64,000 nt of DNA, taken from positions 32,001 to 96,000 of the forward strand of contig CAVUQO010000003.1 of assembly GCA_963743635.1 (NCBI GenBank). The letters are read 5' to 3'. The notes beneath the pieces are model-generated. The model had not been told where the DNA came from, searched no databases, and saw nothing but the letters and a program-made list of their open reading frames with translations. The stretch is from Candidatus Babeliales bacterium. GTDB taxonomy: Bacteria; Babelota; Babeliae; Babelales; Vermiphilaceae. Shown here one piece after another: positions 58,308 to 62,018 of the stretch. Position numbers and translations under genes: made by a program. The stretch's first letter is position 1. Each line of letters opens with the position of its first letter.

Positions 58308-58864
58308 TGATGAAATATCTAGTAACTGCAAGCATAATGAGCTCAAGCATATTAGTTGCAGGCATACCCAATAATCTTTTATCTATGGCGTCAGCATTGC
58401 GTGCAGTTGCGGCATCTCGGAACTCAGTTCGAGCGTACAGCGCCAATCCAGAAAGAACTATAGATAGTCTCTTGCAGCAAGAAAACATGATTGTGCATGA
58501 AATAAATAAGCTTGAAAAAATGATGGGATATTGGATGGATCGGGAGATCGGGGAGCAATGCCTTAACCCTGGTAAATCATACTCCTATGAAATAAAAGTT
58601 TGTGCAGAAAAGAGAGAAAATCTACGTAAAAAACATGATTCAGTGACAAAAAAAATCTCCAAGAAAATTGAAGAAATGTATGACCAAAAAGATGAAGAAA
58701 GCCATTTACTGAAAAATCTTGGAGTATTAGATAGTCAATATCAGGTTGCTTGTCGAGAAGAGGATGACGGGTTTGATTTTACAAGATTTGACATTGAACG
58801 CAGAATTTTGTGTGAGAAAATCGATGCGTTAAAAAAAGAAAGATATTCAAACCCTCGTGGTTAA
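58307..58864 (+). CDS. Hypothetical coiled-coil protein
   Basis: Translationally coupled to 58017; MMKY N-terminus with a hydrophobic stretch. Confidence 0.65.
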   Translation: MMKYLVTASIMSSSILVAGIPNNLLSMASALRAVAASRNSVRAYSANPERTIDSLLQQENMIVHEINKLEKMMGYWMDREIGEQCLNPGKSYSYEIKVCAEKRENLRKKHDSVTKKISKKIEEMYDQKDEESHLLKNLGVLDSQYQVACREEDDGFDFTRFDIERRILCEKIDALKKERYSNPRG

Positions 58865-59766
58865 ATCAACTGCTTTAACGAATTCGCTGATTTTTCCAAT
58901 AACTTCTTTTCCTCATCATTCAATTTAATATCAATGCGACGTTCGACGCCACGCCTTCCCAACACCACCGGCATATTCAGGCATAGTTTGAATTCTTCGA
59001 TGTAGGTCGAGACCGGCACAATCAAATGCTGATTAAATAACACACACTCGCAGAGAGCCGCTACGCAGGCAGCAACGCCAAAGAACGTAGCGCCTTTGCA
59101 TTTAATGATCTCATATGCTTTGTTTTTGGTTTGTTCTGCCATGTCATCAAGATCTTTTTTATTGATCCCTGGATATTCAAGGAGTGGCACGCAACCAACA
59201 TAGGCGCACGACCATGCAGGAAATTGCGTATCGCCATGCTCGCCCAAGATATATGTGCTGATCGATCGTTCTGAGATGGTTAGCTTGTTTGCGAGAGTTA
59301 CATTTATGCGTTGCGAATCGAGCATGGTGCCAGAGCCTATGATTTGGGTGCGCGGAATATTTGCAATGTTTTGCGCAAGAAGGGTCATGATATCAACGGG
59401 ATTGGTAACCATGATGATAATGGTTTCAGGATTGAGAGGCGTAATCGATTTCATAACCGAGCTAATAATCCCGCGATTTTTGGCAACCAATTCGGTGCGC
59501 GTTTGATCCGGTTTTTGTGCGACGCCCGCTGCGATAATAATAATATCTGCATCTTTGGTATCATCCACTGAACCAATACGAATATCTGAAGAACTATGAA
59601 ATGAGAGTGCATCTGAAAGATCGAGCACCTCTCCCGAGCAACGCACTTCATCGATATCGATTAACACAATTTCGGCTGCAATATTTTTAAGTAAGATAGC
59701 ATAGGCTGTTGTTGCTCCAACGGAACCGGCGCCAATAATAGCTATTTTTGAAGATTTCATAATCAT
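58861..59766 (-). CDS. ldh: L-lactate dehydrogenase
   Basis: IIGAGSVG, specificity loop GVAQKPDQTR (Gln, LDH type), VTNPVD, GSGTMLDSQR, LGEHGD. Confidence 0.88.
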   Translation of the reverse strand: MIMKSSKIAIIGAGSVGATTAYAILLKNIAAEIVLIDIDEVRCSGEVLDLSDALSFHSSSDIRIGSVDDTKDADIIIIAAGVAQKPDQTRTELVAKNRGIISSVMKSITPLNPETIIIMVTNPVDIMTLLAQNIANIPRTQIIGSGTMLDSQRINVTLANKLTISERSISTYILGEHGDTQFPAWSCAYVGCVPLLEYPGINKKDLDDMAEQTKNKAYEIIKCKGATFFGVAACVAALCECVLFNQHLIVPVSTYIEEFKLCLNMPVVLGRRGVERRIDIKLNDEEKKLLEKSANSLKQLI

Positions 59767-59964
59767 CCTTTTTTGACTTTATTCAACATTTAATAGTTTT
59801 TAACAATTTTTTATAAATTTTTAATACAATTCTATTGTTATCACAAAAAAATACCTTACAATAATCATATTATTGAGATCAAATGCTAATCTTTGAAAAT
59901 TCTTAATAAAAGCAGATTTATAAAAGAGATATAGAAACTATTAATCCTAATAAGGAGGCTACCC

Positions 59965-60039
59965 ATGGCAGATAAAAAGAAAAAACCAGCAGCTAAACCA
60001 GCAGCTAAAAAAGATGACAAAAACAAGAAGAAGAAATAG
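59965..60039 (+). CDS. 24-aa Lys-rich microprotein MADKKKKPAAKPAAKKDDKNKKKK, copy 1 (histone-H1-like)
   Basis: TAAGGAGG RBS; same peptide as copy 2 with only synonymous differences; too short for the ORF track. Confidence 0.85.
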   Translation: MADKKKKPAAKPAAKKDDKNKKKK

Positions 60040-60073
60040 TCAGACATAACCAATTATTGCTAGGAGGATTCCC

Positions 60074-60148
60074 ATGGCAGATAAGAAGAAAAAGCCAGCA
60101 GCTAAACCAGCGGCTAAAAAAGACGACAAAAACAAAAAGAAGAAGTAA
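60074..60148 (+). CDS. 24-aa Lys-rich microprotein, copy 2
   Basis: AGGAGG RBS; same peptide as copy 1. Confidence 0.85.
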   Translation: MADKKKKPAAKPAAKKDDKNKKKK

Positions 60149-60151
60149 ATT

Positions 60152-60197
60152 CAGCCTTCGTTTATCCAGGCCTTCTGGCTTGGCAAACTACGGCGTG
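60152..60197. repeat. Dispersed REP-like palindromic element, copy B
   Basis: Aligns with 754-799. Confidence 0.65.
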
Positions 60198-60210
60198 ACT
60201 TAATTTTTTT

Positions 60211-60247
60211 AAAATACGGGCGGCATAAAAACTGCCCGTATTTTTTT
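60211..60247 (+). terminator. Intrinsic terminator after the microprotein pair
   Basis: AAAATACGGGCGG/CTGCCCGTATTTT plus further Ts. Confidence 0.75.
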
Positions 60248-60264
60248 AACCATTAAAAATCTAT

Positions 60265-61086
60265 ATGAACATCACCAAGCAAAAATTATTATCATTCCGA
60301 GATTTTATCTGGGCCTTCTATGAAAAAGAAGGAAGAAGATTTGAGTGGCGCAATGTAGATAATCCATACTACGTTCTAGTATCGGAAATCATGCTCCAAC
60401 AAACCCAGACCTATCGGGTTGAGCCCAAATATCAGGCATTTATAGCAGAGTTTCCTAATTTTGAAGCACTTGCGCAGGCATCATTGCGCGATGTGCTCGG
60501 CATGTGGCAGGGGTTGGGGTATAATCGACGTGGAAAATTTCTACATCAAACCGCTCAACGCGTGGTGCAAGAGTATGCGGGAAATCTACCCGATGACCCT
60601 GAACTGCTTGTCACTTTCCCCGGCATTGGAAAAAACACCGCCGGATCTGTTACCGCATTTGCATTCAATAAGCCGACCGTTTTTATTGAGACCAATATTC
60701 GCACGGTTTTTATTCATTCATTTTTTAAAAATCAAGAATCGGTCCACGATAATCTCATCTTACCGCTTGTAGAGCAAACGGTTGATCAGGATAATCCGCG
60801 CGAATGGTATTACGCGCTCATGGATTATGGCGTGCATCTTAAAAAATCGATGCCCAACCCAAGCCGCCGCAGCAAGCATCACGTTATACAATCTAAATTT
60901 GAAGGCTCAGATCGACAAATTCGCGGCGCAATCATTCGTGCGCTCGTCGAGCGTCCCTCGCTCTCTGAATCAGAATTGAGCATTATCTGCAAGAATGATG
61001 CACGGGTATCCAACATCATCCAGGAACTGGAGCAAGAGCAATTGATCGAACGTAAAAATGATATGTTTTGCATTCGCAATGCATGA
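60265..61086 (+). CDS. mutY: A/G-specific adenine glycosylase (short MutY-like, no Fe-S Cys motif)
   Basis: PYYVLVSEIMLQQTQ, WQGLGYNRR, HhH FPGIGKNTA, ETNIR, ALMDYG. Confidence 0.85.
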   Translation: MNITKQKLLSFRDFIWAFYEKEGRRFEWRNVDNPYYVLVSEIMLQQTQTYRVEPKYQAFIAEFPNFEALAQASLRDVLGMWQGLGYNRRGKFLHQTAQRVVQEYAGNLPDDPELLVTFPGIGKNTAGSVTAFAFNKPTVFIETNIRTVFIHSFFKNQESVHDNLILPLVEQTVDQDNPREWYYALMDYGVHLKKSMPNPSRRSKHHVIQSKFEGSDRQIRGAIIRALVERPSLSESELSIICKNDARVSNIIQELEQEQLIERKNDMFCIRNA

Positions 61087-61151: not shown

Positions 61152-62018
61152 TTACACGCCCCGATAAAGGGTCATTCTATAATTGTGATTCAGTTGGTCT
61201 AACAATGTTTTGTTTTTGGTGTTGCGGTATTGAACGCATGCTTGGTATAAAAGGTAAGTAGACATTTGGCTAGCGGTTGAGGGATCAAGATGTGAGAATC
61301 TTTGTGCTATTAATGTTGCTATATTTGCGCGTGTACATTGCAATTGGGCGCTTTTTAATCGTGCCAATTGCGCATCTAGCCGCGCATCGGATATTGGCCC
61401 TGAAGAAGAAAAGACTATATTTTTTTTAGCGTATTTTCTGTAGGCATCGATAAATTCAGATCTAATTTCATCAGGTGTACTACTATCACGGTGAGAGGCT
61501 GCAACAACAGTTTGTACCAAAAGAACATCCACAGCTCTCCCTTTTAGGTCGGACACTTCTTCTATACGATTAGGCCAATTCCCCTTTGCTCGTTCTTGTA
61601 TATAAAAATCCCGCGTTTCGATTTTTTTACGGTCTTTATCATCTATGTCAAAGTGTCCAGATATTCCTTCGCAAGGATCACTGCAATGATATATCATAGG
61701 CATTGTATATACCGTTTTACCGATTTTATAAACCCTTAATTTGCCGAAATCATCCGTATAATTTACATCCGCCAAGCTACCTACAATCTGTTGCATATCG
61801 CCTTCAAATGCTGCTTGTACTTGTTGAGTTAAATCGGCTTTATTTTGCGCGATTTGGGCGGCTAGCTGGGCTGCATGTGTCTCAAAAGGCGACGACTCGG
61901 CATGGGGCGATCGCACGACGGAACAATCTTCCTCGTCAGTTCTAAATGCACTCATGGCCTGCGTGTTGACTGCACCAGCTAAGAGATATGCTATCGCAAA
62001 GTATTTGATAGATTTCAT
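61152..62018 (-). CDS. Secreted hypothetical protein
   Basis: AAGGA RBS; signal peptide ...VNTQA|MS. Confidence 0.7.
   Translation of the reverse strand: MKSIKYFAIAYLLAGAVNTQAMSAFRTDEEDCSVVRSPHAESSPFETHAAQLAAQIAQNKADLTQQVQAAFEGDMQQIVGSLADVNYTDDFGKLRVYKIGKTVYTMPMIYHCSDPCEGISGHFDIDDKDRKKIETRDFYIQERAKGNWPNRIEEVSDLKGRAVDVLLVQTVVAASHRDSSTPDEIRSEFIDAYRKYAKKNIVFSSSGPISDARLDAQLARLKSAQLQCTRANIATLIAQRFSHLDPSTASQMSTYLLYQACVQYRNTKNKTLLDQLNHNYRMTLYRGV

Follow-up and report, generated by a model that had tools for sequence, protein, structure and literature searches.

Several described bacterial proteins carry short lysine-rich repeats or act as tiny basic peptides. Peptides composed of KPAA repeats and the C-terminal domain of AlgP are reported to bind DNA, and AlgP itself is associated with polyphosphate granules (PMC9239181). 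In PhaF, the disordered domain rich in KPAA is reported to bind specific mRNAs and to activate their translation (PMC12818456). Two small basic DNA-binding proteins, ScvA and Hq1, are described as enriched in the small-cell variant of Coxiella (PMC4766238). The present report examines a pair of tandem micro-genes, both of which encode the same 24-residue, lysine-rich peptide with two KPAA units. The pair lies in a 64,000-nucleotide stretch of DNA (the window) from a Candidatus Babeliales bacterium of the phylum Dependentiae (assembly GCA_963743635.1, contig CAVUQO010000003.1). The source genome (G000) amounts to 1.45 Mb in three contigs, is 85% complete and has a G+C content of 42%; in its numbering, the window corresponds to C3:32001-96000.

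Cultured Dependentiae (TM6) are obligate parasites of protists. [quoted passage not shown] The evidence assembled below indicates that the twin genes are almost certainly real and under selection; their product is tentatively read as a polycation that acts on nucleic acid.

Twin genes for one lysine-rich peptide

Both open reading frames (ORF1 and ORF2; Table 1) encode the peptide MADKKKKPAAKPAAKKDDKNKKKK, in which 12 of the 24 residues are lysine. The two copies are unlike at 7 of 75 bases (positions 12, 21, 39, 51, 63, 72 and 75). All seven differences are third-position transitions; six are synonymous changes in sense codons, and one exchanges TAG for TAA. Outside a block that extends from the Shine-Dalgarno (SD) sequence to CCCATG, the flanks of the two copies are unrelated. 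An earlier, sequence-only reading of this DNA had described such a pair, with an AGGAGG before each ORF, the same half-lysine peptide from both, seven synonymous third-position differences (six codons and the stop), unlike flanks and a terminator at the end of the unit. Translation and coordinates confirm the pair, a recount returns the same seven sites, the flanks are indeed unlike with the exception of the SD-to-CCCATG block, and the terminator is recovered in the fold of 60140-60262.

In the window, ORF2 is out of frame with ORF1, while in the orthologous locus L104 (see the next section) it is in frame, behind a second stop codon. Because the frames differ in the one case and a second stop intervenes in the other, the two ORFs are taken to be translated independently. 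Two copies of the peptide gene are present in the genome, namely this pair only.

The mature peptide, of 23-24 residues, weighs 2565-2696 Da and carries a calculated net charge of about +9. Its only hydrophobic residues are the initiator Met, Ala and Pro; Arg and aromatic residues are absent, and three of its residues are acidic. The sequence KPAAKPAA occupies residues 7-14 in all four copies that were compared, so that two KPAA units are flanked by blocks of four lysines. Neither a signal peptide nor a hydrophobic segment is found in the micro-peptide.

Orthologous genes and purifying selection

A degenerate DNA pattern for MADKKKKPA retrieves 12 metagenome loci, of which one, L104, is orthologous. 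L104 is a metagenome contig of a related species in which the order of ldh, twin ORFs and glycosylase gene is preserved. Both of its ORFs encode a peptide identical to that of the window. Between the two species, ORF1 shows four synonymous differences (including the stop codon) and ORF2 two; the flanking enzymes have amino-acid identities of 79% (Ldh) and 89% (HhH-GPD).

When the four copies of the two species are aligned, variation is found at 9 of 25 third positions and at 0 of 50 first and second positions (Fisher p = 1.6e-5), and all nine variable sites are synonymous or stop-to-stop. The orthologous peptides show no residue change at 48 positions, as against 30 changes at 272 positions in HhH-GPD and 64 at 299 in Ldh. 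If the peptide evolved as fast as the slower neighbour, the probability of zero changes would be 0.004; with the rate of the faster neighbour, it would be 1e-5.

The age of the duplication can be read from sites 21, 39 and 72, each of which is A/G/A/G in W1/W2/R1/R2 (copies 1 and 2 of the window, followed by copies 1 and 2 of L104). In both species, these sites distinguish the first copy from the second, which dates the duplication to before the two species diverged. Both copies have been retained ever since, and gene conversion has left the difference between them standing.

Synonymous sites are also constrained. Between orthologues, 14 of 14 four-fold sites of the micro-genes agree; for the neighbours, the count is 84 of 205 (P = 4e-6; Ldh 27/105, HhH-GPD 57/100). 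For two-fold sites, the corresponding counts are 27 of 32 and 125 of 179 (p = 0.049). The micro-genes use GCA/GCT, CCA, GAC and AAC, with AAG for 20 of the 48 Lys codons, and this choice is shifted from the genome average in the same direction as that of the ribosomal protein cluster. The codon choice, which is a matter of few codons, thus appears to fit the high expression that the sequence-only reading had supposed.

The non-coding parts behave differently. The spacer between the ORFs (34 nt in the window, 39 nt in L104) shares 23 identical bases, chiefly in the block from SD to CCC. The RNA from ORF2 to the terminator has 33 identical bases of 62 (window) versus 46 (L104), and the distance from terminator to glycosylase start is 17 nt in the window and ~72 nt in L104. 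What remains of the leader, spacer and 3' untranslated region (UTR) is diverged or insertion-bearing between the two loci.

A further relative is represented in the sludge metatranscriptome X19, from which seven contigs are placed on the locus. Record 2 (224 nt) spans 59973-60150, that is, codon 4 of ORF1 through the end of ORF2. It is reported with 13 differences in total, 11 of them itemised. Three itemised differences are coding: those at 60036 and 60088 are synonymous, and that at 60039 turns TAG into TAA. By comparison, the 34-nt spacer bears eight substitutions and a 2-nt deletion. The excess in the spacer is significant (Fisher p = 1e-4; with both unitemised differences assigned to coding sequence, 6e-4). 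X19 consists of contigs only, from which strand, ends and level cannot be read, and DNA may be present in an RNA library. The ldh and glycosylase genes have no cover in X19; the relative may be under the 80% likeness limit there. A second X19 contig contains a junction from 60149 to 60061, at which the end of a copy is joined to another SD sequence via 18 unrelated bases; it may represent a third tandem copy in the relative, or a second related organism.

Contigs from three DNA runs, belonging to three other studies (soil, rhizosphere and freshwater sediment), cover pieces of 59795-60418 with zero differences. The assembly is reproducible because these contigs match it exactly; on selection, they are uninformative.

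Taken together, these data leave little doubt that the twin ORFs are real, selected coding genes. The purifying selection asserted by the sequence-only reading is thereby upheld through the contrast between third and other positions over four copies, and its view of real micro-genes with a retained duplication through the same copy-1/copy-2 differences in two species. Conservation in relatives, whose absence it had named as a refutation, is seen in the identical twin genes of L104 and the coding match in X19; the scans of the 260 other Dependentiae genomes brought nothing similar to light.

Organisation of the transcription unit

The locus is a small transcription unit composed of a promoter, an unstructured leader, two micro-genes and a terminator, with the peptide as sole product (Table 1).

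Table 1. Features of the micro-gene locus in window coordinates.
Feature	Position	Strand	Details
Divergent neighbour, lactate/malate dehydrogenase (ldh)	58861..59766	-	Pfam Ldh_1_N 6.3e-38, Ldh_1_C 1.1e-31
Near-palindrome	59823..59841	+	AATACAATTCTATTGTTAT; core ACAAT-TCT-ATTGT; overlaps the -35 hexamer; same in L104
Predicted sigma-70-like promoter	59835..59862	+	TTGTTA, 16 nt, TACAAT; consensus scan
SD of ORF1	59952..59958	+	AAGGAGG, ATG 6 nt downstream; GGAG present in 4/4 copies
Micro-gene 1 (ORF1)	59965..60039	+	24 codons + TAG; product MADKKKKPAAKPAAKKDDKNKKKK
Spacer ORF1-ORF2	60040..60073	+	34 nt; contains SD2 AGGAGG (60062-60067), ATG 6 nt downstream
Micro-gene 2 (ORF2)	60074..60148	+	24 codons + TAA; product MADKKKKPAAKPAAKKDDKNKKKK again
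REP-like dispersed repeat	60152..60195	+	~40-44 nt, hairpin in 3' UTR; core TATCCGGGCCTTCCGGCTCGGCAAACTACG; alignment, fold
Intrinsic terminator	60211..60247	+	Hairpin with 13-bp stem, 8-nt loop, T7 run
Downstream neighbour, HhH-GPD DNA glycosylase	60265..61086	+	Pfam HhH-GPD 6.5e-15; begins 17 nt past the terminator T run

From the predicted promoter, transcription would start at about 59869. Both hexamers are kept in L104, where the DNA around them is diverged or bears insertions. The resulting 95-nt leader is AU-rich and shows no significant structure relative to shuffled sequences (z = -0.05); the spacer, too, folds no better than its shuffles. The near-palindrome over the -35 hexamer may be an operator for one or both of the divergent genes. 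The block of near-palindrome and promoter was also sought across the genome as a shared operator, and a scan allowing up to three mismatches returns this single site. From one species to the other, the intergenic block 59823-59905, which the unit shares with the divergently transcribed ldh gene, is conserved to a far greater degree than the DNA around it.

At the other end of the unit, the fold of 60140-60262, which takes in the hairpin of the repetitive extragenic palindromic (REP)-like element and the terminator, has an energy of -41 kcal/mol (z = -5.8). The terminator does not appear in a simple consensus scan because its loop exceeds 8 nt; it is kept in L104, with one compensatory change of a G-C to an A-U pair. 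Two Rfam matches were rejected, namely L20_leader at 60131-60253 (33.1 bits, gathering score 58.7), a stretch that takes in both the REP hairpin and the terminator, and SurA, which scores 14.5 bits. Between the terminator and the start of the glycosylase gene, the consensus scan finds no promoter-like site, so this gene may rely on terminator read-through.

The core of the REP-like element has 13 genomic copies at up to 4 substitutions in 30, compared with 0 for five shuffled cores. The copies include C1:17254, C2:415052, C2:444212 and C3:401862, and one lies directly behind the uS2 gene (C3:582624). The element is absent from L104 and hence not essential to the unit; given this absence, it is mobile or recently inserted. 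Surplus soil contigs that stack on 60152-60195 in DNA run X3 are explained by this repeat.

No secretion or modification gene adjoins the unit, and no acidic micro-ORF is seen next to the twin genes. Adjoining the glycosylase gene, at 61152-62018 (-), lies an orphan ORF of 288 aa with no Pfam family (best E 0.34).

Distribution

As far as seen, the gene pair is confined to one narrow lineage, represented by one of 261 Dependentiae genomes, one metagenome contig and one RNA run. The underlying scans demand near-identity or a strong compositional signal. A pattern for the N-terminus (up to two mismatches) matches 2 of the 261 genomes, namely the source genome and G135, where the match lies in an unrelated 59-aa ORF. 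A pattern for the C-terminus (up to three mismatches) also matches two, the source genome and a match without stop codon. A protein search in 40 relatives gives one match beyond the source genome; with E = 0.385 and a position inside a 335-aa open frame, it was treated as chance. The same type of search gives no match in five further genomes. The 80-81 loci around HhH-GPD homologues contain no SD-preceded Lys-rich small ORF, and tblastn on these loci yields nothing better than E = 0.64, save the pattern-derived L092. In G261, which belongs to a neighbouring genus, 995,100 of 995,664 contig bases were scanned with 0 ATG-started candidates; three TTG-started candidates look like fragments of larger frames. 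The peptide itself matches 0 Pfam families (E<=1), 0 NCBIfam models (E<=10) and 0 PDB sequences (E<=10).

Some of the pattern matches are small basic ORFs in their own right. L092:1347-1526 (-) (G135:C8, Babeliales) is the 59-aa ORF mentioned above; it is rich in Lys, Ala and Arg, begins MAVKKKKAAAKKTARK.. and lies directly 3' of the threonyl-tRNA synthetase gene thrS. It has weak H1-like matches only (NF038053, E 0.2) and no clear kinship with the 24-aa peptide. L097:1501-1614 (+) is a lone SD-preceded ORF of 37 aa, rich in Lys, Pro and Ala, on a contig with 63% G+C. L099:1431-1526 (-), identical to L107, is a lone SD-preceded ORF of 31 aa in DNA with 22% G+C, and its contig also occurs as a 272-kb IMG/VR record. 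Both share only the searched N-terminus with the peptide, and both may be further unannotated polycation micro-genes. Apart from L104, the matches in metagenome and viral sequences are N-termini of longer unrelated proteins or, like L097, L099 and L107, lone small ORFs in unrelated contexts, and none was accepted as a homologue.

Proposed function and alternatives

The preferred reading, to which a probability of about 0.4 is given, is that the peptide is an abundant free polycation on nucleic acid, with the nucleoid DNA of a dormant particle as its likeliest target. The peptide would be produced in large amounts and act in trans; hints of such expression are the SD sequences at 6 nt from each ATG, the unfolded leader, the conserved promoter and terminator, the constrained four-fold sites and the codon choice. 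It would bind nucleic acid by charge and via its KPAA/Lys motifs, and chromosomal DNA would be the likeliest partner. Together with an Hc2-like protein and two HU-family proteins, it would then condense and shield the nucleoid in the extracellular, dormant particle, in a role akin to that supposed for the small basic peptide ScvA in Coxiella small-cell variants. Nucleoid compaction in an infectious stage, as put forward in the sequence-only reading, is plausible for this phylum.

The genome encodes two HU-family genes. It also contains, at G000:C3:767324-767701 (-) (L112:1325-1702 (-)), a 125-aa ORF with Lys/Arg/Ala/Thr repeats (..AKKAAPKRKTAAKK..). This ORF has a weak match to Pfam HC2 (PF07382; 19.5 bits, E 0.0011, below the 40-bit cut-off), and its sequence suggests an H1-like nucleoid protein of the chlamydial type. 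The uS2 homologue encoded at G000:C3:581535-582497 (+) has a Lys/Ala-rich stretch and, at 320 aa, is longer than uS2 proteins usually are (~240-270 aa).

Several points weigh against a nucleoid polycation. The RNA-library contigs of the relative are uninformative about both binding and stage of expression. Condensers that act by charge alone, for instance H1 tails and protamines, tend to evolve rapidly, whereas every residue of the peptide is invariant, including D3, D17, D18 and N20. Since charge-only condensers usually drift, this total invariance mildly favours a specific binding site. With an Hc2-like protein and two HU genes present, an extra condenser is not obviously needed. Moreover, the range in which the peptide was found is narrow (a single one of 261 Dependentiae genomes, plus a metagenome contig and an RNA run), and RNA, too, is reported to be bound by KPAA repeats, as in PhaF (PMC12818456). 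A bolder version goes further still: among free-standing chromatin proteins of bacteria, the peptide would be the smallest, protamine-sized and dosage-doubled (perhaps tripled in relatives), which locks the genome of the dormant particle and belongs to a cross-phylum class of tandem polycation micro-genes unseen by standard gene callers and homology tools. This version is speculative and rather unlikely to hold as a whole.

The main alternative, whose ribosomal form the sequence-only reading had also raised, is a ribosome- or RNA-associated micro-protein, which would occupy a defined rRNA site, as do the tiny basic ribosomal proteins bTHX, bS22, bL37 and eL41, or bind mRNA leaders via its KPAA units; for the latter, the disordered KPAA region of PhaF, reported to bind specific mRNAs and to activate translation, would provide a precedent (PMC12818456). 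A structural site would explain better than a generic counter-ion why 24 of 24 residues are invariant while the neighbours changed by 11-21%, and the extra constraint on synonymous sites, together with a codon shift resembling that of the ribosomal protein cluster, points the same way. Genes this tiny are also routinely missed by annotation. Yet the neighbours of the twin genes are ldh and a DNA glycosylase gene, not a translation cluster, and a ribosomal component would usually be far more widespread than 1 of 261 Dependentiae genomes, with none in the 995-kb contig of the neighbouring genus. No NCBIfam model matched, and with three acidic residues and neither Arg nor aromatic residues the peptide is unlike the tiny ribosomal proteins as these are generally known. 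On balance, a ribosomal or RNA-bound role is somewhat unlikely. It is improbable that the polycation has a target of another kind, be it as a host-directed peptide, as partner or neutraliser of an acidic protein, or as a polyphosphate binder like AlgP. The Lys blocks resemble a bipartite nuclear localisation signal, and direction to the host would suit an obligate protist parasite (PMC6561590); for polyphosphate, there is the association of AlgP, a KPAA-repeat protein, with polyphosphate granules (PMC9239181). However, the peptide has neither signal peptide nor hydrophobic segment, no secretion or modification gene adjoins the unit, and no neighbouring acidic micro-ORF is seen. Polyphosphate is a less likely target because neither PPK1 (PF02503) nor PPK2 (PF03976) was found in the 85% complete genome.

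Two explanations do without a free basic peptide. According to one, the ORFs are cis-acting leaders in which Lys-tRNA sensing or ribosome stalling controls terminator read-through into the HhH-GPD gene. A run of codons for the sensed amino acid is at hand, with Lys at 12 of 24 codons, and the glycosylase gene, which stands behind a strong terminator with no promoter-like site after it, may need read-through. This mechanism is very improbable given the RNA between ORF2 and terminator, which is unconserved (33 identical bases of 62 versus 46) and carries the REP insertion in the window only; because this RNA is not conserved, no conserved antiterminator alternative is possible. The spacing from terminator to start is unequal (17 versus ~72 nt in window and L104), conservation covers the entire peptide and not just the Lys codons, the ORFs are duplicated with a strong SD on each, and a HhH-GPD DNA glycosylase is unconnected with lysine. 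The other explanation places the genes on the opposite strand, where an antisense frame reads as a peptide with the hydrophobic core ..FLSSFLAAGLAAGFFFLSAMG.., reminiscent of type I toxins or of small membrane proteins. The synonymous pattern alone cannot name the strand, since the third positions of the antisense frame coincide with those of the + frame: all nine variable sites are synonymous there as well, and a hydrophobic core of 22-25 residues is found in all four copies. The terminator hairpin, moreover, is flanked on both sides by A-rich and T-rich runs. Against this, the antisense frame has no conserved start (ATG in W1 only, in the other copies merely an internal TTG without SD), and its C-termini are wholly unlike, with tails of 6 to 24 unrelated residues. 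The conserved block runs from the SD of the + strand exactly to the stop codon of the + strand. The + strand is therefore preferred, because an ATG lies 6 nt behind a GGAG-containing SD in 4 of 4 copies and the limits of the block match, which makes antisense genes scarcely credible.

Significance

Genes of 24 codons are too short for gene callers and for most homology and structure tools, and because of this, abundant polycations this small are systematically absent from annotation. The support for the present pair is unusually strong for an unannotated micro-gene: one identical peptide from four gene copies, in two species whose flanking enzymes are 11-21% apart, and an old duplication. If the peptide binds the nucleoid or the ribosome, it would be a new chromatin or translation component in Dependentiae. 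This phylum of protist parasites is widespread, hardly any of its members are in culture, and its free particles combine a condensed nucleoid with survival over years. If the preferred reading of a nucleic-acid-binding polycation is true, the peptide would also offer a minimal natural model of the binding chemistry of KPAA repeats and H1 tails, with two repeats in an easily synthesised 2.6 kDa.

Comparison with known systems

Lys-rich proteins resembling H1 tails and tiny basic peptides are known kinds. For a free 24-mer with two KPAA units that is tandem-duplicated and invariant across species, no description was found in the literature searched; nor did that literature yield a Dependentiae histone or lysine-rich peptide, or a like protamine-sized or ribosome-associated bacterial microprotein. 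The label of histone-H1-like used in the sequence-only reading holds for composition only, with two KPAA units, and not for descent: no H1, Hc1 or Hc2 profile is matched (Pfam E<=1, NCBIfam E<=10). Membership in these families (PF07432, PF07382, NF038053) was therefore rejected for a peptide of 24 residues and two KPAA units without profile match.

The likeness to AlgP and PhaF lies in tandem KPAA units, a composition of Lys, Ala and Pro, and predicted disorder. The domains of these proteins are reported to bind DNA, polyphosphate granules (AlgP) or RNA (PhaF) in a lysine-dependent manner, and are described as comprising 9 to ~30 repeats fused to a folded N-terminal domain (PMC9239181, PMC12818456). 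In contrast, the micro-peptide is free-standing, with its own SD and stop codon, and has two units, Lys4 blocks and three Asp. It shows no detectable homology to AlgP or PhaF, and no PPK was found in this genome.

Hc1 (HctA) and Hc2 (HctB, PF07382) of Chlamydia are likewise Lys/Ala-rich polycations of an obligate intracellular bacterium, and condensation of the nucleoid in the infectious form is attributed to them. Hc2, however, is described as 165-237 aa of lysine-rich pentamers (PMC2848022), compared with 24 residues here. As for tiny basic ribosomal proteins, the peptide has no Pfam or NCBIfam match to the models of bTHX, bS22 or bL37. These proteins and eL41 have 24-33 residues, are highly basic and highly expressed, and are missed by automatic annotation. 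They are Arg-rich, in many cases with aromatic residues, and whole phyla share them, whereas the micro-peptide has no Arg but three Asp, is encoded outside a translation operon and occurs in one narrow lineage.

The remaining comparison, with ScvA of Coxiella burnetii, is one of function only and not of sequence. ScvA has ~30 aa, is rich in Arg and Gln rather than in Lys, Ala and Pro, is single-copy and belongs to a different phylum. As a tiny basic DNA-binding peptide reported from a dormant form (PMC4766238), it is the system nearest to the micro-peptide in size and in proposed role.

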